64,000 nucleotides of DNA from a virus. Lineage: Duplodnaviria; Heunggongvirae; Uroviricota; Caudoviricetes. The notes under the pieces are model-generated. The model searched no databases, was not told the origin of the DNA, and was given only the letters and a program-made list of their open reading frames with translations. The position numbers and the translations under genes are program-made. The stretch's first letter is position 1. Each line of letters starts with the position of its first letter. Location of the stretch: IMG/VR virus record IMGVR_UViG_2537562189_000009. One strand, written 5' to 3'. Shown piece by piece: positions 21,828-40,047 of the stretch.

Positions 21828-24254
21828 ATGTCCAAAAATGAACGAATGGTGGGCATCAGCCGCAGAACACTCGTTAAATCTACCGCGATAGGTTCTCTGG
21901 CGCTGGCTGCAGGCGGTTTTTCTTTGCCGTTTACCCTGCGCAGTGCAGCAGCAGCGGTACAACAGGCCCGCGAAAAAGTGGTCTGGGGTGCCTGTTCCGT
22001 CAACTGTGGTAGCCGCTGTGCACTTCGTCTACATGTTAAAGATAATGAAGTGACCTGGGTGGAAACTGACAATACCGGCAGCGATGAGTACGGCAACCAT
22101 CAGGTACGCGCCTGTTTGCGCGGTCGCTCCATCCGCCGGCGTATTAATCATCCCGATCGCTTGAATTACCCAATGAAACGCGTGGGTAAACGCGGTGAAG
22201 GCAAATTCGAACGGATTAGCTGGGATGAAGCCCTGGATACTATCGCCAGTAGCCTGAAAAAAACCGTCGAACAATATGGCAATGAGGCTGTATATATTCA
22301 GTACTCTTCGGGGATCGTTGGCGGCAATATGACCCGCTCTTCGCCATCAGCCTCGGCGGTCAAACGCCTGATGAACTGCTACGGCGGTTCACTCAATCAG
22401 TATGGCTCCTACAGCACCGCGCAAATTTCCTGTGCCATGCCCTACACCTACGGCAGTAATGATGGCAACAGCACCACGGATATTGAAAACAGCAAGCTGG
22501 TCGTGATGTTTGGTAACAACCCGGCAGAAACCCGCATGAGCGGCGGTGGCATCACTTATCTTCTTGAAAAAGCGCGCGAGAAATCGAACGCCAAAATGAT
22601 TGTTATCGATCCGCGATATACCGATACGGCTGCTGGTCGTGAAGATGAATGGCTCCCTATTCGCCCGGGCACCGATGCCGCGCTGGTTGCGGGTATTGCC
22701 TGGGTATTGATTAACGAAAATCTCGTTGATCAACCTTTTCTCGATAAATACTGCGTCGGCTATGACGAAAAAACCTTACCCGCAGATGCACCCAAAAATG
22801 GTCACTATAAAGCCTATATTCTTGGTGAAGGTGATGATAACACAGCGAAAACGCCGCAGTGGGCTTCGCAAATTACCGGTATCCCGGTAGACCGTATCAT
22901 CAAACTGGCGCGTGAAATTGGCACAGCAAAACCCGCTTATATCTGCCAGGGCTGGGGGCCGCAACGCCAGGCAAACGGCGAACTGACTGCACGCGCTATT
23001 GCTATGTTACCTATTTTGACGGGCAATGTCGGCATCAGCGGCGGAAATAGTGGCGCGCGTGAATCGACCTATACCATTACCATAGAACGCCTGCCGGTGC
23101 TGGATAATCCGGTCAAAACGTCAATCTCCTGCTTCAGCTGGACGGATGCTATCGATCATGGTCCGCAAATGACGGCAATCCGCGACGGTGTCCGGGGCAA
23201 AGATAAACTGGATGTGCCCATTAAGTTCATCTGGAACTACGCGGGAAATACCCTCGTTAATCAGCATTCTGACATCAACAAAACGCATGAAATTCTGCAG
23301 GACGAATCGAAATGCGAAATGATTGTGATCATCGAAAACTTTATGACCTCATCGGCAAAATATGCCGACATTCTGCTGCCAGACCTGATGACCGTTGAGC
23401 AGGAAGATATTATTCCTAACGACTACGCCGGTAACATGGGATATCTCATTTTCCTCCAGCCTGTCACCAGCGAAAAATTCGAACGCAAACCGATTTACTG
23501 GATCCTGAGTGAAGTCGCGAAACGTCTTGGACCTGACGTCTATCAAAAGTTCACAGAAGGTCGCACGCAGGAACAATGGTTACAACATCTGTACGCCAAA
23601 ATGCTTGCCAAAGATCCGGCGTTACCGTCTTACGACGAACTGAAAAAAATGGGTATCTATAAGCGTAAAGATCCCAATGGCCATTTTGTCGCCTACAAAG
23701 CATTTCGTGACGACCCCGAGGCAAATCCACTTAAAACGCCTTCCGGTAAGATTGAAATTTATTCCAGCAGGCTGGCGGAAATTGCCCGTACCTGGGAACT
23801 GGAAAAAGATGAAGTGATAAGCCCATTGCCAGTTTATGCCTCAACCTTTGAAGGCTGGAACTCCCCTGAACGTAGAACCTTCCCACTGCAACTGTTTGGT
23901 TTCCATTACAAATCCCGTACTCACTCGACCTACGGCAATATTGATCTCCTGAAGGCTGCCTGCCGTCAGGAGGTGTGGATCAACCCTATAGATGCGCAGA
24001 AACGTGGGATTGCCAACGGCGATATGGTGCGGGTGTTTAACCATCGTGGCGAAGTTCGGCTACCAGCCAAAGTAACACCACGTATTCTCCCTGGAGTTAG
24101 CGCTATGGGCCAGGGAGCCTGGCACGAGGCCAATATGTCTGGCGATAAAATCGACCATGGCGGCTGTGTGAATACGCTAACCACTCTGCGCCCTTCACCA
24201 CTGGCGAAGGGAAACCCGCAGCACACTAATCTGGTCGAGATCGAAAAAATATAA
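21828..24254 (+). CDS. ynfE: Molybdopterin oxidoreductase YnfE (DMSO/selenate reductase family catalytic subunit, 808 aa)
   Basis: Twin-arginine signal SRRTLVKSTAIGSLALAAGG, Fe-S cysteine cluster CSVNCGSRC, MopB-like core; paralog of the following gene. Confidence 0.9.
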   Translation: MSKNERMVGISRRTLVKSTAIGSLALAAGGFSLPFTLRSAAAAVQQAREKVVWGACSVNCGSRCALRLHVKDNEVTWVETDNTGSDEYGNHQVRACLRGRSIRRRINHPDRLNYPMKRVGKRGEGKFERISWDEALDTIASSLKKTVEQYGNEAVYIQYSSGIVGGNMTRSSPSASAVKRLMNCYGGSLNQYGSYSTAQISCAMPYTYGSNDGNSTTDIENSKLVVMFGNNPAETRMSGGGITYLLEKAREKSNAKMIVIDPRYTDTAAGREDEWLPIRPGTDAALVAGIAWVLINENLVDQPFLDKYCVGYDEKTLPADAPKNGHYKAYILGEGDDNTAKTPQWASQITGIPVDRIIKLAREIGTAKPAYICQGWGPQRQANGELTARAIAMLPILTGNVGISGGNSGARESTYTITIERLPVLDNPVKTSISCFSWTDAIDHGPQMTAIRDGVRGKDKLDVPIKFIWNYAGNTLVNQHSDINKTHEILQDESKCEMIVIIENFMTSSAKYADILLPDLMTVEQEDIIPNDYAGNMGYLIFLQPVTSEKFERKPIYWILSEVAKRLGPDVYQKFTEGRTQEQWLQHLYAKMLAKDPALPSYDELKKMGIYKRKDPNGHFVAYKAFRDDPEANPLKTPSGKIEIYSSRLAEIARTWELEKDEVISPLPVYASTFEGWNSPERRTFPLQLFGFHYKSRTHSTYGNIDLLKAACRQEVWINPIDAQKRGIANGDMVRVFNHRGEVRLPAKVTPRILPGVSAMGQGAWHEANMSGDKIDHGGCVNTLTTLRPSPLAKGNPQHTNLVEIEKI

Positions 24255-24314
24255 CCCACGACAACCATAAATTCTGGCATGACATTTTGTTTGAAAAGCA
24301 ATAAGTGAGTAATG

Positions 24315-26738
24315 ATGAAAATCCATACCACAGAGGCGCTCATGAAGGCTGAAATCAGCCGTAGAAGTCTGATGAAAACCTCCGCACTTGGCAGTCTTGC
24401 GCTGGCAAGCAGTGCTTTCACTCTGCCATTTTCCCAAATGGTCCGGGCGGCAGAGGCTCCGGTAGAAGAGAAAGCGGTCTGGAGTTCCTGCACCGTTAAC
24501 TGCGGGAGCCGCTGTCTGTTACGTTTGCATGTGAAAGATGACACCGTGTACTGGGTGGAGTCTGATACGACAGGTGACGACGTCTACGGTAACCATCAGG
24601 TTCGAGCGTGTTTACGCGGGCGCTCTATCCGCCGACGGATGAATCATCCTGATAGGTTGAAATATCCCATGAAGCGCGTCGGCAAGCGCGGTGAAGGTAA
24701 ATTTGAACGGATAAGTTGGGACGAAGCCCTGGATACCATCAGTGATAATCTTCGGCGGATCCTGAAAGATTACGGCAATGAGGCTGTACATGTCCTGTAC
24801 GGAACAGGCGTAGATGGCGGAAACATCACCAACTCAAACGTCCCGTACCGTCTGATGAACTCTTGCGGTGGTTTTCTCAGTCGCTATGGCAGCTACAGTA
24901 CCGCACAGATCAGTGCCGCAATGAGTTATATGTTCGGTGCCAATGATGGCAACAGCCCGGATGATATCGCCAATACGAAACTGGTCGTTATGTTCGGAAA
25001 TAACCCGGCAGAAACGCGGATGAGCGGCGGTGGTGTCACTTACTACGTCGAGCAAGCCCGCGAACGTTCAAACGCACGCATGATCGTCATCGATCCACGT
25101 TATAACGACACTGCTGCCGGGCGTGAAGATGAATGGCTGCCCATTCGCCCTGGCACCGATGGCGCACTGGCCTGTGCGATTGCCTGGGTACTGATTACTG
25201 AAAACATGGTCGATCAGCCATTTCTCGACAAATATTGTGTTGGTTACGATGAAAAAACGCTGCCCGCCAACGCACCACGTAACGCGCATTATAAAGCCTA
25301 TATTCTGGGCGAAGGGCCTGACGGCATAGCTAAAACGCCGGAATGGGCAGCAAAAATCACCAGCATCCCGGCAGAAAAAATTATCCAGTTGGCACGAGAG
25401 ATCGGTTCAGCAAAACCTGCTTATATTTGTCAGGGTTGGGGGCCACAACGACATTCCAACGGCGAGCAAACGTCCCGCGCTATTGCCATGCTTTCCGTTC
25501 TCACCGGTAACGTCGGCATAAACGGCGGCAACTCAGGTGTACGCGAAGGTAGCTGGGATCTGGGGGTAGAATGGTTCCCGATGCTTGAGAATCCTGTTAA
25601 AACGCAGATTTCCGTCTTTACATGGACAGATGCCATCGACCATGGTACGGAAATGACCGCGACCCGTGATGGTGTTCGTGGAAAAGAAAAACTGGATGTC
25701 CCCATCAAGTTTTTATGGTGCTACGCCAGTAACACATTGATCAATCAACATGGCGACATCAATCACACCCATGAGGTGCTTCAGGATGACAGCAAGTGCG
25801 AGATGATTGTTGGCATTGACCACTTCATGACGGCCTCGGCTAAGTATTGCGATATCCTGTTGCCCGACCTGATGCCAACAGAGCAAGAAGACCTTATCTC
25901 TCATGAATCTGCAGGGAATATGGGCTATGTGATCCTCGCCCAACCCGCAACCTCAGCAAAATTTGAACGCAAACCCATCTACTGGATGCTGAGTGAAGTC
26001 GCCAAACGCTTAGGACCAGACGTTTATCAAACCTTTACTGAAGGTCGCAGTCAGCATGAATGGATCAAATATCTCCATGCGAAAACGAAGGAACGTAACC
26101 CTGAGATGCCCGACTACGAGGAGATGAAAACGACCGGGATCTTTAAGAAAAAATGCCCGGAAGAACACTACGTCGCTTTCCGCGCATTCCGTGAAGATCC
26201 ACAGGCAAACCCGTTGAAAACACCTTCGGGGAAAATCGAAATTTATTCGGAACGACTGGCGAAGATTGCAGATACCTGGGAATTGAAAAAAGATGAAATT
26301 ATTCATCCCCTTCCTGCGTATACCCCAGGTTTTGATGGCTGGGACGATCCCCTGCGGAAAACCTATCCACTGCAGTTAACGGGCTTCCACTACAAAGCGC
26401 GTACCCACTCCAGCTACGGCAATATTGATGTGTTACAGCAGGCCTGCCCACAAGAGGTGTGGATCAACCCCATTGATGCTCAGGCACGCGGTATCCGTCA
26501 TGGCGATACCGTGCGGGTATTTAACAATAATGGAGAAATGCTGATTGCCGCAAAAGTGACTCCGCGTATTCTGCCTGGCGTTACCGCCATCGGGCAAGGT
26601 GCGTGGCTTAAAGCGGATATGTTTGGTGACCGGGTCGATCACGGCGGCAGTATCAATATTCTGACCTCTCACCGCCCTTCACCGCTGGCAAAGGGAAACC
26701 CGTCGCACAGCAATCTTGTCCAGATCGAAAAGGTTTAA
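24315..26738 (+). CDS. ynfF: Molybdopterin oxidoreductase YnfF (807 aa)
   Basis: Tat signal SRRSLMKTSALGSLALASSA, CTVNCGSRC; close paralog of ynfE. Confidence 0.9.
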   Translation: MKIHTTEALMKAEISRRSLMKTSALGSLALASSAFTLPFSQMVRAAEAPVEEKAVWSSCTVNCGSRCLLRLHVKDDTVYWVESDTTGDDVYGNHQVRACLRGRSIRRRMNHPDRLKYPMKRVGKRGEGKFERISWDEALDTISDNLRRILKDYGNEAVHVLYGTGVDGGNITNSNVPYRLMNSCGGFLSRYGSYSTAQISAAMSYMFGANDGNSPDDIANTKLVVMFGNNPAETRMSGGGVTYYVEQARERSNARMIVIDPRYNDTAAGREDEWLPIRPGTDGALACAIAWVLITENMVDQPFLDKYCVGYDEKTLPANAPRNAHYKAYILGEGPDGIAKTPEWAAKITSIPAEKIIQLAREIGSAKPAYICQGWGPQRHSNGEQTSRAIAMLSVLTGNVGINGGNSGVREGSWDLGVEWFPMLENPVKTQISVFTWTDAIDHGTEMTATRDGVRGKEKLDVPIKFLWCYASNTLINQHGDINHTHEVLQDDSKCEMIVGIDHFMTASAKYCDILLPDLMPTEQEDLISHESAGNMGYVILAQPATSAKFERKPIYWMLSEVAKRLGPDVYQTFTEGRSQHEWIKYLHAKTKERNPEMPDYEEMKTTGIFKKKCPEEHYVAFRAFREDPQANPLKTPSGKIEIYSERLAKIADTWELKKDEIIHPLPAYTPGFDGWDDPLRKTYPLQLTGFHYKARTHSSYGNIDVLQQACPQEVWINPIDAQARGIRHGDTVRVFNNNGEMLIAAKVTPRILPGVTAIGQGAWLKADMFGDRVDHGGSINILTSHRPSPLAKGNPSHSNLVQIEKV

Positions 26739-30281: not shown

Positions 30282-30571
30282 GCTAGCCTGAAGCCTTCTC
30301 AAATGTTGGTATTGCAATGGCGGTAGCGCTGATGGTGTATTCGATTTGCCGCTGGGGATAAAAACGGTTTGCGGGGAAAGAAGAGTTAAGTAGAATTGCT
30401 GCGGGTGCTTGAGGCTGTCTGCCTCGGGCATGCCGCCGTAAGGCAGACATAGAAAAGCCCCAGTTAACATTTCGCGTCTTGCAGGACGCTTAACATTAAT
30501 CTGAGGCCAATTTCATACTAGACACATGTAGGTTAGCCTCTTACGTGCCGAAAGGCAAGGAGAAGCAGTCT

Positions 30572-30727
30572 ATGATGCAGCAAAAGGCGATGTTAATCGC
30601 CCTGATCGTCATCTGTATTACCGTTGTTGTGACGGCACTGGTAACGAGGAAAGACCTCTGCGAGGTAGGAATCCGAACCGGTCAGACGGAGGTCGCTGTC
30701 TTCGTAGACTACGAATCTGAGAAGTAA
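30572..30727 (+). CDS. hok: Hok-family type I toxin (51 aa), third hok locus
   Basis: MMQQKAMLIALIVICITVVVTALVTRKDLCEVGIRTGQTEVAVFVDYESEK; SD AAGGAG upstream; leader homologous (inverted) to 4381-4512. Confidence 0.8.
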   Translation: MMQQKAMLIALIVICITVVVTALVTRKDLCEVGIRTGQTEVAVFVDYESEK

Positions 30728-30846: not shown

Positions 30847-31191
30847 ATGAAAAAGGTATTGATTGCAGCACTTATTTCCGGTGTGTCTTTTGGCGTTTTT
30901 GCACAGCAGGGCGGTTTCCAAGGGCCTGAAGCAGAGCGTTCAACAGTAGCGCAGGCAAAAGAACTGAAGGATGATGCATGGGTTATCCTTGAAGGGAGCA
31001 TCGTTAAAAAAGTGGGTAATGAACGTTATGAGTTTCGTGACAATAGCGGGACAATTGTCACGGATATTGATGACAGCGTATGGGCCGGGCAGAATGTTTC
31101 TCCGAAAGACAAAGTAAGAATTGAGGGTGAAATTGATAAAGACCTGAGCAGTGTTGAAGTGGATGTAAAGGCACTGAAATTATTAAAGTAA
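30847..31191 (+). CDS. YgiW/YdeI (BOF) family periplasmic OB-fold protein (114 aa)
   Basis: Signal peptide MKKVLIAALISGVSFGVFA and ...VILEGSIVKKVGNERYEFRDNSGTI...IEGEIDKD pattern; hairpin plus T-run terminator at ~31205-31240. Confidence 0.7.
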   Translation: MKKVLIAALISGVSFGVFAQQGGFQGPEAERSTVAQAKELKDDAWVILEGSIVKKVGNERYEFRDNSGTIVTDIDDSVWAGQNVSPKDKVRIEGEIDKDLSSVEVDVKALKLLK

Positions 31192-31623: not shown

Positions 31624-34600
31624 TTACTCCACTCCCACTTTTTTGTTGTACTCGCGGTTAAAGCGATCCACGGCAACCTTCATATCCCGCTCTACCGATT
31701 TCACCATCGCCGCCTGCTGCGCCAGACTGAGAGAACTGTCGGCATAAATGGCATCGCGCTGTTTGCGCAAATCCTTCAGTCTCTTCCGGGTATCCTGCAT
31801 AAGCCCGTTCATCGACAATTTTCCGTTGTTCTCGTCAATGAACGCCGTTCTTTCTGCACCGGTCAGACTCTTCAGCTCTGCGTGATACTGCGCAACCTCT
31901 GTCATCCGGTCGTACATCTTCTGCTGGTCTGCATACGGCATCACCTCACCCGAAATTTTCCCCAGGAAGGGCACCTGCTGTTCCGGTATATCAATACCAT
32001 TCAGCGATTTCACCGCCGCATCCGTGGTTTTGGAAATGAAGCGCCCTGTCCCTCCGGAGATATAGTCAATCCAGAATATCAGCGATTCCGGTGTGATATC
32101 CACCGCGCCGGGACGGTACTGACTGCCACCAGAGAACGCATTCAGCCAAGATGCAAACGCCTTGTACGCTTCTGGCGTTGAACGTATTCCCAGCTGGCTG
32201 TCAGGTTTTGGTGTACCAAACGGTATGTTCTCCTGGTAAATCTGCGCCCCCATGAAGTTTTCATTCATGGCAAGGTTCGCAAACGGACGCAGAATGGTCG
32301 GCGCTGCATTTTTCAGCAATGCCCCGGACAGTGTTTCCGACGTCTCACTGCCGATCGGGCTGAATGCCCCCAGGATACCACCGACAACATTACCGGCAGC
32401 ACGGGATGCCGTCAGGTCACCCGCCGCCACACCTTCAGCGGTATGCCCGAGCAGGAAGAAAACGTTGTACCCGTAAGGCAGAGGAATACTCCAGTACTCT
32501 CCGGCCTTGCCCCCGAACACCGATTTCATAATGACGAGGTTACGCTCTTTCACATGAGACGGCACTTTGTCATACCAGTTAACCCCGTCATCATCCTCCC
32601 CCGCAACACTGCGGTTAAGCGAGCCAAGCAGATAACCCGCTCCCACAGCTGCAAGCGCGATTTTCTGCGGTACATTGAGATTCTTCCAGCGAAGGCGCTC
32701 CAGTAACGGCCCGTCGCCATTAAGATGTCCGAGCGTTCTCACCAGGTTTGCCGTCCCCTGAATGCTGGCGTTGGCAAACATATACAGCGAGTTCATCAGC
32801 GCTCCCTGCTCACCACGACGATTAAAGTTCACCGTCATGTTTTTGGCAAGAGACGCCGCCTGCTGGCGTGACAAACCGGCATCACGGGCGTGTTTATAGG
32901 CAGAAAGACGCAGAGCATTTTCAACCGCCCCGTTGGCATCCTCGACAAGGTTAAGGAACGAATTCCATGCACCGATACTCTGGCCTTTCCATCCTCCCTT
33001 CGCCAGCGATACAAGGCGATCCATTTCCTTCTGCTGGCCTTCAAGGTCACCCATGTTAAACCAGCCGGTTTTACCTCCGTCCTCAACAAACTCTTTCCAC
33101 ACCTTCTGCCACTGCGCACCTTTGCCCGTGAGGTTTTTGCCACGCAGACTGGCGTATACGGCTGACATAGCAGAACGGCTGTCTTTCACCACAGCCAGTG
33201 CGGATAAGTTATCCAGCCCTTTCAGTTTGCCGTCGCTCCTTCCCTGCTCCGCCTTCAGATTCATCACCGCTGTCTGCACATCACGGATGAAGTTACTGAC
33301 CAGGAATTCCGGGTTATACGACGTGTTCACCGTTGCCAGGAAGCGGTTAACTTTCCCCAGCGTACGGATTACTGCGTTACTGGTTTCCGGTCCCATATTC
33401 TTCATCGCACGCATCAGGCGCGGATCATGGAGTTTGATGTAGTACGTTTTGCCGTTCTTTTTGGTGGTGAAGTACCGGTCTGCCATCATTGCCATCGCCA
33501 CCGGACGCTCGACAACTTCGCGAATGGTTTCACCAGTTTCCTGGTCCTTGCGCTCTGCAATCACACGCATGGTATCCGGTCTGTCATCAGTGAATACCTG
33601 CCAGTAATCCTTATCGGGATTATCCTGCACCAGCTTCAGGAAGGCGTTACCCACTTCATTTTTGCGACTGCGGATCAGCGATTCGCTCAAGTCCTGTATC
33701 GCCTGAGTGGACGGAGACTGTGCGCGGGATGCACGCCCCATGGCCTGCTTACTTTCACGCCCACCGATGGTGAAGCCCTTACCTGTACGGGGCAGTGACA
33801 CCACACCGTCAACATCCTGCCCTTTCAAGGGAACGTAGTAACGGTAGGCGTTCTGCCAGGCATCCACCACACCGCTCTCTTCCAGTCCGGCCTCACGGAT
33901 AAGCTCACGGCGACGGGCCAGCATATCGTCAACAATCCCTGCCAGACGGTCATACTGTGCCTGTTTGCCGCTGTTACGTACACGCTGCATGATTTCCGCC
34001 GCTTCCGCGTTGGTCATCCCCGAACCGCCGTCCGGCATTTTCGGGTTGATTTTCGCGATATGCGCGTTACGTTCCGGCGCGTGACGGGCGTAGAGATACT
34101 CATCCAGATCGGCCTGCGCAATTTTGTAGTCCGCCAGTAATTTAGCCAGTGGCTGAACGTAGCGCTCCTTCATCACGTTCAGGTCGTTTTCCGCCTTCCC
34201 GTGGAAGAGTTCTTCCGCCATATAAGCGTTGTTACTGTCGTCTATTTTTCCGCCAGTTTTACGGATATTCTCCTGAACAGCTTTCAGCACCTGGAATTTA
34301 TCCTGCATCTGGCGCACAAAACGCGATGCAATTGTCTCTTCCGGTGTCAGACTGCTGGTACGGGAGTAATACGGCCCCTTGCGAATATCTTCAGGATAGA
34401 GTATTTTATCTACAGAGCCGCGATAAGAACGCTCCTCTTTGGGCAATTGAAGCCCACTGTACTGAGGGTTATCGCGGCTTAATTTTTCCTTCCGGTAAAG
34501 CGTCAAACCTGCTTTATCCAGGCTATTAGCTTTGTTCATCCCTCCTTTTGTTCCATATACAGAAGCCACCTTGTTAATTTCTATTCGTTTATCTGTTGCC

Positions 34601-37600
34601 TTCATGTGCACTGCCGACACCACCGGATCACCATTTTTATCCACGGCATCAAGCAGCATCACAACCGCATTTCTTTCTGTCGCGGAACGGTAAATTGCAT
34701 CCGGATCGTGCATCAGCTCAGGAAGTCTCTCGATAACATCCATCGGCACCACATGTTTCACGCCATTGGTTGCCTTCCGCACAGTGTCGCGGGAGATAAC
34801 CAGCGGCAAATCTGGTGCGCCAAGGTGGCGCAATACCGGCGGCGTACGCCCGATGTTTGCAGTCATTGCACCAGAACGTAACGACTTCATCATTCTGGCA
34901 AGGTCATCACGATAACGCTCGCCCTCACCTTCCGGCACTTTGAACGGATCAGGTTTACCACTACGGGAGTACTGAGACGATGCGTCCGCGCCATCCTCAC
35001 GCGGCGTGTAACCTTCCCGCACACGCTGGCCTAACGTACGGATGGTCTCGCGAACAAGTCTGATATCGTTCAGTTCCGTCGGCTTCAGTAACCCCGTACG
35101 ACGCAGTACCCCTTTGACCAGGGCAACAACACGCTCCCATGCCGCCACGAATTTATTCGGCTGTTTCTCCGCCATATGTGCCAGAAATTCACCCGCCTGC
35201 ACTTCCGGTGATTCCTTACCATAAGACGCATCAACCTTACGCCAGGCTTCACGGATGGTGGCGTTATCACTGTCACGGGTTTTCAGCACGGTCTTAATAA
35301 TCGTCTGATATTCCGCTGGCGTGACAACATGCTCCATGGCATGGTGGATAATCTCGTGACGCAACTTCTCGCGTACGGTCCGCCCGTCAGGGATGTTATC
35401 CGCCACCAGGACAATTTCTCGTTTATCCGGACGATAGAATGCGTGCACCCTGCCGTAACCGTCGAACGATTCACCCGCCAGCGCTTCAGCCTCTTTCTGT
35501 GACTTCACCACACGGACCTTCAGGTCACTGTCCTTAATGCCGCTCATCACGCCACGGGCAACCGCTTCAACCTGCGGGACCGGGCTGCCTTTGGCTTCCG
35601 CACTACGGTTAACATCCGAAATGAGATTACCTTCAGGTGTGCGGGTAACGCCCTTACGGGAATAAAACGCAACGCCCTTGTCCGTCTCACGGGTTTTCAG
35701 GGTGCGGAACAGGTGATCGAATGCCTCACGAATACCGCCATCCAGTTCCGCATTCGTCGGATAAGCGTAGGTGTTATCTGTGTTGTGCTCAGGTGCCTTA
35801 CGGATATTGACCAGATAATCATTCTCCACGCCAGCCATACGCGCCTTATCCTGAACATAACGCTCAAAGGCACGTGCCGCCATTTCAACATCCGTTGACC
35901 AGTACGGTTTTGAGCGCACCTCATCAAGAAGCGCTGAACGACGCGGCATGTCACTGTTTTTAATGGCCTGAATCACACCTTTAAAAGCGTCGTAAACCTC
36001 CTGACGTACCGGATATTCAGCATCAACATACCTGCCGTCTTTAAATACGCGCCTGGCACGCTGTGCTTCCGTCATAAAGTCGCCACCTGACGTAATTTTC
36101 CCGTCAGTGGAAACGTCATAACGACCAAAATAATTATCCAGAGAATGGAACCATTCGTGCGCCAGCGCACCCGGTCCGTTACCTTTTGTCAGGTTGATTG
36201 CCGCCTCACCCGGCTCATAGTGTGCTGCCGCCTTACCCTTACCACGGGCACCAAATGCCAGGCCAAGACGACCGTTCAGGGAAAGCGCTTTTGTCGGTAC
36301 ATTCAGTACTTCCGCAAGGTCATGCAGCGAGTCATAAGCCCGGTTCAAATCAGCCTGACGACGCGGACCTTCCACATAATTACCAAACTGCACACCACGG
36401 AAACCAAACGCATCACTGAACTGCTCCGGTGAAACATTCCCCTTGCGGCGTTCTGGTCCGGTACGGTCGCGGTTGGTGGCGTTGCGCTGCTCCTCACGCG
36501 AAATCTCCCGCATCTCCTTCACATGACGAACAAGCTCATCACGATGTGAATCAATGTACTTACGCGCATCACTGGCTGACTTAAAGCCACCTCTCACCCG
36601 CATTTTGTTTTTACCGTAAGCGATAAAAATATCGCCACTGCGGGTATTCCGGTAAACGTCAAAGCGGATTTTGTCATCCGGTGACGGTGCTGTTTTTTCA
36701 TCACCTTTCGCCTGTGATTTTTCCTCCTGCTCTGCAAACCAGACTTTCGCCTTTGCCAGTAATTCATCCCTGCTTTCCGAGAAAAAGAGGTTACTCCCCT
36801 TATTGTCCTTATTGCGCAGTGAATAAAGTTTCTGTGGCGGATCGTAACGCTTCCCTCCTGCCGCCTGATACACACCCGATACCACCCGATAAGCAGAAGC
36901 TCTGTCCATCTGTGAGGGTGGCAGAGTGCGTAACAGTTGCCAGGTGTCCGCGTAACGGGAGGGCATTCTGCCTTCCATCCATTCTGCGAGGCGTTTCGCG
37001 CTGACCGTTCCGTTCAGCATTTCCGATACACTGTGTCGTACTTTTTTTATGCTCTCCCCCCAGCCTGCCGTATTGTGTTTCGTCTTCGCCGGAATATCGC
37101 TACGATACAGCGCTATCATTGCCAGGGTATCAGCATCGGCACCTTCGTTCGCCAGTTTTGCGTAGTCCGGTTTCGGGAACAGTTTGCTCAGCGGCTGCGT
37201 GGCATAATCCCTGTCTTCCAGCGTTTTACCCAGTGTTTCAGCAAGCTGTGCATAACGGTGTTTGGCTGCCCCTTTAATTTCCTCGCCAAAGTCTTCAATT
37301 TTTTTGCCCCTGACTTCACCTCCGCGCACGGTAGCTTCCCTGTCAGTAGAGACAGTTGTTTCAGATTCAGGTGCGATTGTCTCAGGCTGCGGGATGTCAC
37401 GATTTCCTCCGGCCTGTCGGCGTACTTCTGCCTGCTGTGCAAGCTCAGGCAGTGAGTCCCGTACAGTGCGGGGAAGTGATTCAGGCTGAGGCATACGAAC
37501 ATTACGCGCAATGTCAGGAGCCGGTAGCCCTTCACGTACCGGTGCTGTCGCGTTCTGCGCATCCGGTGACGGCAGACCACGACGAACCATTTCACCCTCG

Positions 37601-40047
37601 AGTGTTTCCCCCTGGCGACCAGCGGCGTTTTCCGGTGCCGGAGCTTGTCCTTTCTGGAAACTCTGGCCCTTAACCTCACCGGTTGTGGTAAAACGACCAC
37701 CACGTCCTGCCTGATTCTCATCCGGCGTACGCGCCACCTCTCCCGGTAACGGATATCCCTGTCCGGGATGAATATCGCCGGGAGCGGGCAGGCGTGGACG
37801 CTCAGTTAACTCCTGTGCTGTCGGACCGGCATCACCTTCAGCCATCTGTGAACGTACAAGCTCCTCTGCCGTCGGCACGTTGCCACGGGCAAGGCGGGCC
37901 TGTACCTCCGTATCATCCCCCGTGAAACCACGGAATCGTGGGTCACGCATGAACGCGGGCTGCTCCATCGGGTCAGCATCAGCAATACGCTCTCCGTCAG
38001 CCAGGGTGTTAATGGTTTCCGTTGCCACATCTTCAGAGAACGCAGGATTATCCATTTCAACGGCATACTGATTCTCGCCTTTCTTCACTACGGACGGTTT
38101 CAGGCCGGTAGCGGCGGCATTACGGAAAACATCACTCCCCATGGCGCTTTTCTCATCCGTGAAATAACGGTTGTCCGGGCGCACCTTTTCAATGCGTTCC
38201 GCTGGTCTGGACGCACCATTCCCGTTAATTTCAATGCGGACTTCATTCGGGTCCCGGAACCGCACCGTCGGGTAAATGCTCCCGTTACCATCCTCCGCAT
38301 TTTCAGGCTGTGACTGTGCTTCCGGCGTCACTTCCTGTTGTGGGCGAATGACTTCTCGTATTGCCTGAAACTGTTGTTCTTCAGTCTCGGTGCGCCCCTC
38401 TTTCTGGCTGAGTCTGCGGTATTCCTCAAGCAGTTCAGAACGCGGCTTCGCCTTCAGCTCATTCATCACAGCCTGTCGCTTCGCCTGTTCGTCCAGTTCA
38501 TTCAACAACTGGCTGGCAGCTTCCCGGCGATGAGCTGCGGATGCGTCACCCTCTGTTGCCATATCCGCATCAGCATACTGCTCCAGAAGCTGCTCGCGAT
38601 TCATGCCCTGCATGGATTCACGCTGCTGCGCCACCGGATCAACAGATTCTGGTTGCGGGGCTGCGTCGTCCTGCTGCACGGTTTCAGCATCACGCATGGC
38701 GGTTTCTTCTGCGGCCTGACGTCTGCCACGATATCCGGCAACCGCACCGGATGGAGCCCCCATCGCAGCACCAAAGGCTGCACCTTCGATCGTTGCGTCA
38801 GCCACGCCCTCCCACGGTGACACATCCATTCCGGCGGTCTCACGCAATGCCGTGTTTTCCTGATAGCGTGAATAGCCGCCCTGCGCCGCATTAATCGCCC
38901 CCTGTTCCGTGGCATTTCTGACAATGCCGCTTTTAACGGTCTTCGCTGTGCCTCGTGTCACCAGATTAAACAGTTGTGCGTCACCCAGTTTTGCCGCCAT
39001 GGCATTCACAGCCAGCAATTCAGGATCGGTTGCCAGCTGCGCGCGCACCTCATCGGCAACACGCTCTTTTGCCAGATCCATTTTCTGGCGATCAGTAAGC
39101 TGTGCGTGCTGCGGGTCGGCGTCAATGGACAAAAACGTCTGCTGAAATTTCGGTGACTGCGCCAGCTCAGAGTAATCCGCATTAAGAACAGCATCTGCTG
39201 CCGCCATTGCACTCTGCCCCTGTGCACTGGCTGTGGAATGGGTGATCAGGCCCGCCTGGAATAAATCCGGCATTTTTTTATCGACAGCTTCTGCTGCCAG
39301 TGCCGTGGCTCTTTCCGGCTGCATCCCTGCCGCGATGTATTTTTTCTCCAGCCCGGCGGTCAGCATTTTTCGCAGTGTGACATCACCCACCTTTTTAGCC
39401 ACACCGCCAGCAACCATATCAGGTACAAGCGCACCAATCAGGTTTACACCCTTCGCCACCCAGACCGCAGAATCATCATAGCCTTCGGTCATCGGCGTAT
39501 TCAGCGCACGAACTGCACCCGGCGACATCTTACCGGTCAGCCATTCATCAGTGGCTTCAGCACCATCACTGACAGCCTTACCGGTTGCCTTCAGACCTTT
39601 ACCGACAGTATCAGTAACCGCGTTTTTGCCATCAGGCAGGGTATCGATGACCTCATCAGCCCCCCTGCTGCCACCGGCAAAAATATCCTGCACAGTTGTG
39701 ACACCCGGCAGCCCCATACGGCTGAACTCATTTAAAATACGCGCCCCTGTTTTTACCGGGCTCTGAATCATCGCATCACCGAGTCCACGGGCCATTTCCC
39801 CTGTTCCCCGGACGGACTGGGCGAAACCTTTACCCATTGTTGGCAATACATCGCCCAGGCTGAACGACGTACTGTTATCCTTCCAGCGATTCGGATCAGA
39901 GAAAAATGCTTCATAGCTGTCAGTTTCGCCGGGTTGCTGAATGTTCAGGCTGTTACGATTCTGGTTACCGAGTTGCGCCTCAGGACGCTGTTCCTCTGAA
40001 TAGGCCATACAGACTCCATAAAAAAACCCGGCACAATGGCCGGGCAT
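31624..40047 (-). CDS. Giant virion-associated protein (2807 aa) with embedded HExxH zincin-like motif
   Basis: Single uninterrupted ORF; ALAHEWFH at nt ~36145-36159; long Ala/Gln-rich and charged low-complexity tracts; last gene of a co-directional block of six. Confidence 0.8.
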   Translation of the reverse strand: MPGHCAGFFYGVCMAYSEEQRPEAQLGNQNRNSLNIQQPGETDSYEAFFSDPNRWKDNSTSFSLGDVLPTMGKGFAQSVRGTGEMARGLGDAMIQSPVKTGARILNEFSRMGLPGVTTVQDIFAGGSRGADEVIDTLPDGKNAVTDTVGKGLKATGKAVSDGAEATDEWLTGKMSPGAVRALNTPMTEGYDDSAVWVAKGVNLIGALVPDMVAGGVAKKVGDVTLRKMLTAGLEKKYIAAGMQPERATALAAEAVDKKMPDLFQAGLITHSTASAQGQSAMAAADAVLNADYSELAQSPKFQQTFLSIDADPQHAQLTDRQKMDLAKERVADEVRAQLATDPELLAVNAMAAKLGDAQLFNLVTRGTAKTVKSGIVRNATEQGAINAAQGGYSRYQENTALRETAGMDVSPWEGVADATIEGAAFGAAMGAPSGAVAGYRGRRQAAEETAMRDAETVQQDDAAPQPESVDPVAQQRESMQGMNREQLLEQYADADMATEGDASAAHRREAASQLLNELDEQAKRQAVMNELKAKPRSELLEEYRRLSQKEGRTETEEQQFQAIREVIRPQQEVTPEAQSQPENAEDGNGSIYPTVRFRDPNEVRIEINGNGASRPAERIEKVRPDNRYFTDEKSAMGSDVFRNAAATGLKPSVVKKGENQYAVEMDNPAFSEDVATETINTLADGERIADADPMEQPAFMRDPRFRGFTGDDTEVQARLARGNVPTAEELVRSQMAEGDAGPTAQELTERPRLPAPGDIHPGQGYPLPGEVARTPDENQAGRGGRFTTTGEVKGQSFQKGQAPAPENAAGRQGETLEGEMVRRGLPSPDAQNATAPVREGLPAPDIARNVRMPQPESLPRTVRDSLPELAQQAEVRRQAGGNRDIPQPETIAPESETTVSTDREATVRGGEVRGKKIEDFGEEIKGAAKHRYAQLAETLGKTLEDRDYATQPLSKLFPKPDYAKLANEGADADTLAMIALYRSDIPAKTKHNTAGWGESIKKVRHSVSEMLNGTVSAKRLAEWMEGRMPSRYADTWQLLRTLPPSQMDRASAYRVVSGVYQAAGGKRYDPPQKLYSLRNKDNKGSNLFFSESRDELLAKAKVWFAEQEEKSQAKGDEKTAPSPDDKIRFDVYRNTRSGDIFIAYGKNKMRVRGGFKSASDARKYIDSHRDELVRHVKEMREISREEQRNATNRDRTGPERRKGNVSPEQFSDAFGFRGVQFGNYVEGPRRQADLNRAYDSLHDLAEVLNVPTKALSLNGRLGLAFGARGKGKAAAHYEPGEAAINLTKGNGPGALAHEWFHSLDNYFGRYDVSTDGKITSGGDFMTEAQRARRVFKDGRYVDAEYPVRQEVYDAFKGVIQAIKNSDMPRRSALLDEVRSKPYWSTDVEMAARAFERYVQDKARMAGVENDYLVNIRKAPEHNTDNTYAYPTNAELDGGIREAFDHLFRTLKTRETDKGVAFYSRKGVTRTPEGNLISDVNRSAEAKGSPVPQVEAVARGVMSGIKDSDLKVRVVKSQKEAEALAGESFDGYGRVHAFYRPDKREIVLVADNIPDGRTVREKLRHEIIHHAMEHVVTPAEYQTIIKTVLKTRDSDNATIREAWRKVDASYGKESPEVQAGEFLAHMAEKQPNKFVAAWERVVALVKGVLRRTGLLKPTELNDIRLVRETIRTLGQRVREGYTPREDGADASSQYSRSGKPDPFKVPEGEGERYRDDLARMMKSLRSGAMTANIGRTPPVLRHLGAPDLPLVISRDTVRKATNGVKHVVPMDVIERLPELMHDPDAIYRSATERNAVVMLLDAVDKNGDPVVSAVHMKATDKRIEINKVASVYGTKGGMNKANSLDKAGLTLYRKEKLSRDNPQYSGLQLPKEERSYRGSVDKILYPEDIRKGPYYSRTSSLTPEETIASRFVRQMQDKFQVLKAVQENIRKTGGKIDDSNNAYMAEELFHGKAENDLNVMKERYVQPLAKLLADYKIAQADLDEYLYARHAPERNAHIAKINPKMPDGGSGMTNAEAAEIMQRVRNSGKQAQYDRLAGIVDDMLARRRELIREAGLEESGVVDAWQNAYRYYVPLKGQDVDGVVSLPRTGKGFTIGGRESKQAMGRASRAQSPSTQAIQDLSESLIRSRKNEVGNAFLKLVQDNPDKDYWQVFTDDRPDTMRVIAERKDQETGETIREVVERPVAMAMMADRYFTTKKNGKTYYIKLHDPRLMRAMKNMGPETSNAVIRTLGKVNRFLATVNTSYNPEFLVSNFIRDVQTAVMNLKAEQGRSDGKLKGLDNLSALAVVKDSRSAMSAVYASLRGKNLTGKGAQWQKVWKEFVEDGGKTGWFNMGDLEGQQKEMDRLVSLAKGGWKGQSIGAWNSFLNLVEDANGAVENALRLSAYKHARDAGLSRQQAASLAKNMTVNFNRRGEQGALMNSLYMFANASIQGTANLVRTLGHLNGDGPLLERLRWKNLNVPQKIALAAVGAGYLLGSLNRSVAGEDDDGVNWYDKVPSHVKERNLVIMKSVFGGKAGEYWSIPLPYGYNVFFLLGHTAEGVAAGDLTASRAAGNVVGGILGAFSPIGSETSETLSGALLKNAAPTILRPFANLAMNENFMGAQIYQENIPFGTPKPDSQLGIRSTPEAYKAFASWLNAFSGGSQYRPGAVDITPESLIFWIDYISGGTGRFISKTTDAAVKSLNGIDIPEQQVPFLGKISGEVMPYADQQKMYDRMTEVAQYHAELKSLTGAERTAFIDENNGKLSMNGLMQDTRKRLKDLRKQRDAIYADSSLSLAQQAAMVKSVERDMKVAVDRFNREYNKKVGVE

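Follow-up and report, generated by a model that had tools for sequence, protein, structure and literature searches.

Phage polyvalent proteins, as described by Iyer et al. in 2017 (PMC5512222), join several unrelated effector-type domains in a single chain encoded among virion genes, carry zincin metallopeptidase domains between the other domains, and include phage-type members to which the LPD38 domain is restricted. A giant gene of 8.4 kb, whose product resembles these proteins in all these points, was analysed in a window of 64,000 nt (the whole stretch of DNA studied, IMG/VR record IMGVR_UViG_2537562189_000009). The window is Escherichia coli chromosome, in which a Traversvirus-type short-tailed prophage adjoins ynfE/ynfF. 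Orthologues of the giant with the same domains, and in the same place after a 421-aa gene, are found in the Shiga toxin (Stx) phages 933W (L0134/ST933Wp72), Sakai VT2 and phi24B (vb_24B_48; "gp47" in a recent preprint). The phi24B protein, 97% identical, was among 15 virion proteins identified by mass spectrometry of purified virions (bioRxiv 10.64898/2026.04.10.717836). It was called abundant, yet was absent from the cryo-EM map and the negative-stain images, and was proposed to be an internal ejection protein (bioRxiv 10.64898/2026.04.10.717836). Its detection in virions together with its invisibility in the map suggests that it is internal. The same preprint calls the MuF-C domain of this protein a metallopeptidase digesting peptidoglycan (bioRxiv 10.64898/2026.04.10.717836).

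Other giants bear on the comparison. The virion RNA polymerase (vRNAP) gp50 of phage N4 (3500 aa) consists of an N-terminal domain, a 100-aa low-complexity linker, the polymerase, a HExxH domain (C1) and a 110-kDa helical domain without known fold relatives (C2), and is thought to cross the tail as beads on a string. In JC1 and Bcep22, too, mass spectrometry found the LPD38 giants associated with the virion. The LPD38 giant of PTXU04 (2198 aa) is required for efficient infection, as found by CRISPRi-ART knock-down.

We consider it probable that the giant of this window is a virion-packaged, ejected polyvalent protein of the 933W/phi24B-type (Traversvirus) short-tailed Stx prophages, built of a constant frame and exchangeable cargo. 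Such a protein would be produced late, be packaged in the T=9 capsid and leave through the tail together with the DNA at infection. Its layout comprises an N-terminal domain, a disordered acidic linker of ~440 aa, variable cargo and a constant C-terminal unit, the last consisting of a second zincin domain (HExxxH) and a mostly helical module of ~930 aa; all of these but the cargo belong to the frame. The cargo here is a cassette of LPD5 and zincin peptidase and a predicted RNase (MuF_C/PBECR). The C-terminal unit would be the carrier that brings the protein into the head and on into the cell. In the cell just infected, the cargo domains would target RNA and proteins of the host, leading to host takeover or counter-defence, and the zincin domains would either process the polyprotein into its active parts or cleave host proteins. 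The first-pass annotation of this DNA had put forward an internal-core or ejection protein with an enzymatic domain, belonging to a short-tailed virion, and, as an alternative, a multi-domain anti-defence polyvalent protein. The former is supported by the phi24B orthologue in virions and by a conserved zincin site, and the latter by LPD5, LPD1, MuF_C and LPD38, any anti-defence activity itself being presumed. Since the phi24B orthologue was detected in virions, both readings hold together as one virion-packaged, ejected polyvalent protein, and only their opposition falls.

As shown in Table 1, the chain could be divided into an N-terminal region, a linker, cargo domains and a C-terminal module; residue numbers follow the 2807-aa frame of the first-pass annotation throughout. 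Pfam matches to LPD5 (E 6.5e-45), LPD1 (aa 1374–1453), MuF_C and LPD38 were all above cut-offs, and all four domains stem from the polyvalent-protein study (PMC5512222). Together with two zincin domains, they bring more than the two unrelated effector or LPD domains in one chain that mark the class, and the gene stands among late/virion genes as the last of a structural block, following, as the first-pass annotation had it and the list of open reading frames (ORFs) bears out, co-directional ORFs of 218, 150, 90 and 421 aa. The giant is a phage-type polyvalent protein of the class of Iyer et al. (2017). Upstream of the block, portal, N4-gp56-family capsid, adaptor and fibre genes are annotated in a near-identical RefSeq prophage; no tape-measure, tube or sheath genes are annotated there, in agreement with their reported lack in this prophage.

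Table 1. Features of the giant gene and of the block that it ends (positions are those of the window; aa, residues of the 2807-aa frame).
Feature	Position (nt)	Strand	Remarks
Giant polyvalent-protein gene	31624..40008	-	most likely coding sequence, 2794 aa + stop
N-terminal region, aa 14-460	38668..40008	-	conserved core aa ~174-421 common to Vibrio and Aeromonas phage giants (tblastn)
Acidic, Pro/Gln-rich low-complexity linker, aa ~461-900	37348..38667	-	from composition
Cassette head: IxDFGExIxGA+K motif aa 917-932 and LPD5 aa 1064-1213	36409..37299	-	
Zincin-like metallopeptidase domain 1, aa ~1214-1453	35689..36408	-	H1276, H1297-E-W-F-H1301, D1304, Glu helix E1388/E1395
Zincin-like metallopeptidase domain 2, aa ~1486-1690	34978..35592	-	H1564-E-I-I-H-H1569 (nt 35341-35358), downstream GEFLAHMAE helix
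MuF_C domain, aa 1763-1852	34492..34761	-	Pfam E 1.2e-17, 64.3 bits (cut-off 27.6)
C-terminal ~930-aa mostly alpha-helical module, aa ~1874-2807	31627..34428	-	LPD38 covers only aa 2490-2695 (nt 31963-32580)
Putative terminator-like GC-rich hairpin and T7 run	40026..40045	-	between 421-aa gene and giant gene
421-aa gene	40078..41343	-	directly upstream of giant gene; PHROG 601; candidate internal/ejection protein
90-aa gene	41354-41626	-	C-terminal half a long glycine zipper, GTGIGTGATIGATVGSAVPVVGTAVGAVAGAVIGGIAGALF
150-aa gene	41636-42088	-	same block
218-aa gene	42085-42741	-	matches PHROG 8003 "virion structural protein" (E 2e-9)

The N-terminal region was 29% identical to that of the giant of Vibrio phage D60 (BLASTP, E 6e-27) and contained a weak glycine-zipper-like segment (aa ~419–446; sub-threshold Pfam Gly-zipper, E 0.04–0.13). 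The linker contained, per 100 aa, 15–20% D+E and up to 14% Pro, with a net charge down to -12, and had no Pfam match. When seven unassigned segments were compared with Pfam at E up to 10, sub-threshold noise was obtained besides the weak glycine zipper and a hint of Peptidase_M76 at the second HExxH. Searches by sequence for relatives of solved structure, with the whole protein and with the profiles of both regions, returned none that was meaningful, the PDCD10 matches (E 0.03) being due to chance.

The first HExxH motif (HEWFH) was confirmed by translation at nt 36145–36159, exactly as in the first-pass annotation. Its reported setting within low-complexity tracts was not borne out: the low-complexity part is aa ~461–900, and the motif lies in a conserved, confidently modelled domain (mean pLDDT of the motif helix 78–89 in blocks of 10 residues). 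Two HExxH motifs were observed against a chance expectation of 0.03 from the composition of the protein. Both sites lie outside all Pfam matches, and in this the giant differs from the models of Iyer et al., since the Pfam LPDs miss both of its peptidase cores. A query of aa 1200–1700 found 946 homologues, 60 of which were aligned at 19–48% identity. H1276, G1291, H1297, E1298, H1301, D1304, E1388 and E1395 were kept in 59–60 of these 60 (H1276 in 60/60, D1304 in 59/60 and, on the next long helix, E1388 in 59/59 and E1395 in 59/60); loss of the motif among homologues, which the first-pass annotation had named, coupled with a mutation without phenotype, as grounds for giving up its proposal, was not seen at the first site. 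The zincin clade of Iyer et al. is marked by a His ending strand 2, an Asp three residues past HExxH and then a Glu-bearing helix (PMC5512222). Peptidase 1 shows the HExxH and the Glu helix, the strand-2 His and the Asp after the motif, and its predicted fold is that of a zincin. The HExxH is accordingly a real, conserved site of zincin type, putatively zinc-binding and peptidolytic. Fold matches of the HExxH domains were to MtfA, lethal factor, PPEP, IrrE and SprT, that is, to protein-cutting zincins and not to wall hydrolases. Because the Glu helix falls inside the LPD1 match, Pfam "LPD1" is in effect the back part of peptidase 1.

The second motif (HEIIHH, aa 1564–1569) was kept in 42–45 of ~50 aligned homologues. 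At the site aligned with it, Vibrio phage D60 has HEILAHH, and 14 diverse giants share LxHExxGH, with the E invariant and both His and the Glu of a downstream ExLAxxAE in at least 90%. Because of these two observations, the second site is best read as HExxxH, a variant also described by Iyer et al. (PMC5512222).

The motif IxDFGExIxGA+K at the head of the cassette was present in the homologue consensus. A free-standing LPD5-peptidase-LPD1-peptidase protein of 874 aa was found at 10001–12625 of a Selenomonadaceae contig, in a conjugative element beside TraG, two TrbL, an M23 peptidase and an LPD7-MobA/L relaxase; TnpV and a group II intron reverse transcriptase also lie in this neighbourhood. 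Another free-standing cassette, of 795 aa, closes the structural module of a phage, where it follows an SLT protein. Since the cassette occurs in both conjugative elements and phages, it would most simply work inside the recipient cell. The further cargo domain, MuF_C, is of the BECR RNase fold and represents a PBECR-type predicted endoRNase (Iyer et al. 2017, PMC5512222); it is here, too, predicted to be an endoRNase and not a peptidase. The MuF-C of phage Mu itself is said to be inactive.

The C-terminal module extends far beyond LPD38. Homologues were 34–58% identical over 97–99% of its length, and in an AF2 model it formed a single, mostly helical body (pLDDT 85, pTM 0.81). No fold match was found in the PDB with Foldseek (in a library without the N4 structure), the best hit being a membrane transporter at noise level (E 0.056, TM 0.07), and no relative among solved structures was found by sequence. 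In BFVD, 67 predicted viral structures matched the module with TMq up to 0.89; among the 50 of these 67 that were listed, 38 were later pieces (_2 to _4) of split giant proteins. By tblastn, the module was detected in Stx phages, ~100 Vibrio phages (41%), Ralstonia and Burkholderia Bcep22-like phages, where it is annotated "DarB-like" (27–28%), and Bacillus megaterium podophages (22%). Screened by profile, 1.84 billion cluster representatives yielded 19,847 matching clusters at E<=1e-3, and 7,954 when the threshold was E<=1e-30. In 131 of the 133 top representatives (median protein length 2722 aa) the module ended at most 15 residues from the C-terminus, with a median of 2 aa, and a HExx(x)H was present 60–450 residues upstream of it in 83/128.

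The domains ahead of the module varied. All of the 14 giants contained LPD38, accompanied by LPD1 in 5, LPD5 in 4, an ADP-ribosyltransferase in 4, a Sno-type helicase in 3, PBECR5 in 3, a pyrophosphatase in 2, DdrB-ParB in 2, MuF_C in 2, RadC in 2 and SLT in 1. The giant of Vibrio phage D60 (3066 aa) has only three parts in common with the giant of this window, namely the N-terminal domain, peptidase 2 and the module; it had no Pfam match to LPD5, LPD1 or MuF_C and no BLAST match over that stretch. From the fixed position, the huge spread and the varied cargo of the module, and from the PTXU04 phenotype, we infer a role as carrier.

This layout was compared with those of the other giants. Bcep22 gp75, JC1 gp69 and the Ralstonia GP4-like "DarB-like" giants (4500 aa) share the C-terminal module (27–28% identity over 84–88%) and are likewise the product of the last gene of the virion module, in T=9-type podoviruses with portal and capsid proteins akin to those of 933W. 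Their cargo differs: it consists of a lytic transglycosylase, a methylase/helicase (DarB-like) and LPD3, none of which is present here. The C-terminal fragment of PTXU04 protein 00025 (2198 aa) folds like the module (Foldseek E 4e-24, TMq 0.65); the protein is 16% identical and comes without other recognisable domains, and it is the only LPD38 giant with a knock-down phenotype.

N4 gp50 resembles the giant in being packed in a capsid of the same major-capsid family, in being encoded by the last virion-block gene after small ejection proteins, and in its parallel order of N-terminal domain, linker, cargo, HExxH domain and large helical domain. When peptidase 2, as a profile of the 14 giants, was compared with N4 C1, 34 columns about the active site could be aligned (hhalign probability 83%, E 8.7e-6); the stretch concerned, strand-strand-helix, is gp50 ~2197–2232 and aa ~1530–1569 of the giant. 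No relation of the helical module to the N4 C-terminal domain was detected (hmmsearch against N4 gp50–gp58; hhalign probability 0.1–1.9%; trimmed profiles negative), and homology of the two was rejected, as only the active-site stretch of peptidase 2 aligned. The giant had no match to a T7-like RNA polymerase domain, which sets it apart from the N4-like vRNAPs. It is conceivable, although on balance we doubt it, that the HExxxH peptidase and the ~930-aa module form a general protein-injection carrier of tailed phages, a working counterpart of N4 vRNAP C1+C2 and possibly a very distant relative of it, so that any cargo fused upstream would enter the head with it and be passed into the cell like beads on a string.

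The giant gene was present at full length in 186 phage records at 90–99.7% nucleotide identity (933W, Sakai VT2, phi24B and many Stx1/Stx2-converting phages), the ORFs of 933W, Sakai VT2 and phi24B being 97–99.9% identical across the whole 8.4 kb. It was also present in 426 of 5426 complete E. coli genomes, and in 423 of the 426 carriers at least 80% of the 8.4 kb was covered. Against phi24B and 933W, the synonymous divergence (dS) was 0.07–0.08 and the ratio of nonsynonymous to synonymous divergence (dN/dS) 0.13–0.21. Purifying selection ran along the length of the gene, and the substitutions were scattered in patches, a recombination-like pattern. Because of this dN/dS, the giant gene is judged a functional, selected gene. 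A literature search for expression of the giant ORF in phi24B lysogens (PMC3342100) and for L0134 of 933W gave nothing.

The uninterrupted reading frame noted in the first-pass annotation was confirmed as an open frame without stops at 31624..40047 on the minus strand (2807 codons and a stop). It is 39 nt longer than the likely coding sequence (40047 against 40008). The first in-frame ATG of the longer frame lies inside the hairpin of Table 1 (GCCCGGC-cattgt-GCCGGGT followed by T7, a 7-bp stem with 6 GC pairs). GGAG is located 6 nt 5′ of the ATG at 40008, RefSeq WP_000331697.1 ("LPD5 domain-containing protein") uses this ATG, and the PHROG 616 profile matches residues 14–2807 end to end, pointing to a start at M14. 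On these grounds the giant protein is most likely 2794 aa long and starts at ATG 40008, not 40047; among orthologues, the databases disagree between 2794 and 2807 aa. In a Q-antiterminated late operon the hairpin would be read through; under other conditions it might reduce expression of the giant gene relative to the upstream genes. The "leader peptide" given for the long form of phi24B in GenBank HM208303 is probably an artefact of the upstream start.

The phi24B preprint's proposal, that the giant is a structural ejection conduit (a trans-periplasmic tube) whose metallopeptidase opens the peptidoglycan, accounts for a protein that is present in phi24B virions and invisible in the map, and podoviruses do need ejection proteins; a lytic transglycosylase domain is present in the Bcep22/JC1 giants and in one of the 14 sampled giants. 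We regard this proposal as unlikely. MuF-C has the BECR fold of a predicted RNase and not that of a metallopeptidase, the HExxH domains resemble zincins that cut proteins, and no SLT, lysozyme, M23, NlpC or amidase domain was found with Pfam, unassigned segments at E up to 10 included; on these and the following grounds MuF-C as a peptidoglycan-digesting metallopeptidase was rejected. A conjugative element already equipped with an M23 peptidase, moreover, carries the same cassette. Nor did the giant contain classical transmembrane helices: the best hydropathy over 19 residues was 1.2–1.4, and no stretch of 16 residues was free of D, E, K, R, Q, N, H and P. For this reason we discarded the notion of the module as an obvious membrane channel.

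It is also rather unlikely that the giant is a dispensable DarB-like anti-restriction accessory, which would ride in the head and shield the incoming DNA as P1 DarB does, and be unneeded on permissive hosts. The C-terminal part does match PHROG 10089 "DarB-like antirestriction" (E 5.5e-24), Bcep22-like and Ralstonia homologues are annotated DarB-like, and polyvalent proteins are predicted counter-defence effectors (PMC5512222); but the PHROG match is limited to the LPD38 module, and no Pfam match to an N6-adenine methyltransferase or helicase was found in the whole protein or its unassigned segments, so that the giant does not belong with DarB. The near-complete retention of the gene among E. 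coli carriers and the purifying selection along its length also speak against an accessory, as does the requirement for the PTXU04 LPD38 giant for efficient infection on a laboratory host. That the giant is a secreted zinc-protease toxin, which the prophage would express for lysogenic conversion or virulence and whose target would be the animal host, seems very improbable. Stx prophages are rich in morons, with lom, bor, YadA-like and hok genes nearby, the phi24B ORF bears the "leader peptide" note, and anthrax lethal factor was among the top fold matches. However, the supposed leader falls within the 13 codons that precede the likely true start and overlaps the hairpin, the gene lies in the late structural block and the phi24B product is in virions, and homologues occur in phages of marine Vibrio, soil Burkholderia/Ralstonia and Bacillus.

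Several points weigh against the virion-packaged, ejected polyvalent protein that we prefer. Evidence for its presence in virions is provided by a single preprint, which deals with an orthologue, and ejection, cleavage and enzymatic activity of the giant are predictions. PADLOC, a catalogue of defence and anti-defence systems, matched no family. The catalytic residues of MuF_C, for which GVKH (aa 1762–1765) is a candidate, are putative. As no classical transmembrane helices are present, a membrane-conduit role of the module has no direct support in its sequence; and as the module has no structural relative in the PDB, the argument for a carrier role is one of position and co-variation with cargo.

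The 421-aa protein was homologous to the product of a 467-aa gene (9844–11247) preceding the giant of Vibrio phage D60 (E 2e-12). As the D60 homologue takes the same place directly before its giant, the two genes make up a unit conserved across distant hosts. The 90-aa protein gave sub-threshold Pfam matches to Gly-zipper_Omp and Bacteriocin_IIc (E 0.002–0.005), and the small proteins of the block, the 90-aa protein included, had PHROG matches to internal segments of tape-measure and tail-lysin proteins. In the phi24B preprint "a homolog of a bacteriocin" was found in virions and dismissed as a contaminant (bioRxiv 10.64898/2026.04.10.717836); it may be this 90-aa protein, and may be a true membrane-inserting ejection protein. 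None of the four small upstream proteins showed similarity to N4 gp51–gp58.

Other genes were seen in the surroundings. Just past the giant gene, on the plus strand, lie a Hok/Gef-type toxin ORF (30545–30727), which is on the strand opposite to the giant gene, and a gene for a YgiW/YdeI-family OB-fold stress protein (30847–31191); in 933W their counterparts are hokW/sokW and the YgiW-like gene. Within the late region, after the fibre genes and before the block of the giant gene, lie two minus-strand genes, one for a YadA-like trimeric autotransporter (head repeats and anchor; 43325–44536) and one for a lom/ail-family outer-membrane protein (45260–45994). At the junction of the prophage with ynfE-ynfF (window 21828–26738), the near-identical RefSeq genome has a truncated 4Fe-4S gene, likely ynfG. 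A second prophage end (~12357–16467), with a 431-aa integrase and an 823-aa 3′–5′ exonuclease, lies beyond the ynfA-F/rspAB block.

Earlier records already cover the gene itself and the family to which it belongs (PHROG 616; RefSeq "LPD5/LPD38 domain-containing protein"), as well as its class, since 2017, and its location in virions, since 2026. The present analysis refines the picture of a known gene family: the start was corrected; both metal sites were found to lie outside the Pfam models, LPD1 being part of peptidase 1; the second site was read as HExxxH; a C-terminal unit of ~930 aa was defined, with its scale and strict position; and the idea of peptidoglycan digestion was corrected.

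Short-tailed Stx phages spread Shiga toxin genes among E. coli, and the giant gene takes up ~14% of their genome. If the giant is needed for DNA delivery or for beating host defences, it would limit which strains can become new Shiga-toxin producers. Thousands of giant phage proteins, differing in their enzyme cargo, bear this C-terminal module, so that work on one tractable E. coli phage would inform a very large class. Should the carrier reading be true, the giant would be essential for infection in Stx phages and not an accessory, and the ~20,000 module-bearing clusters would be a catalogue of injected effectors.

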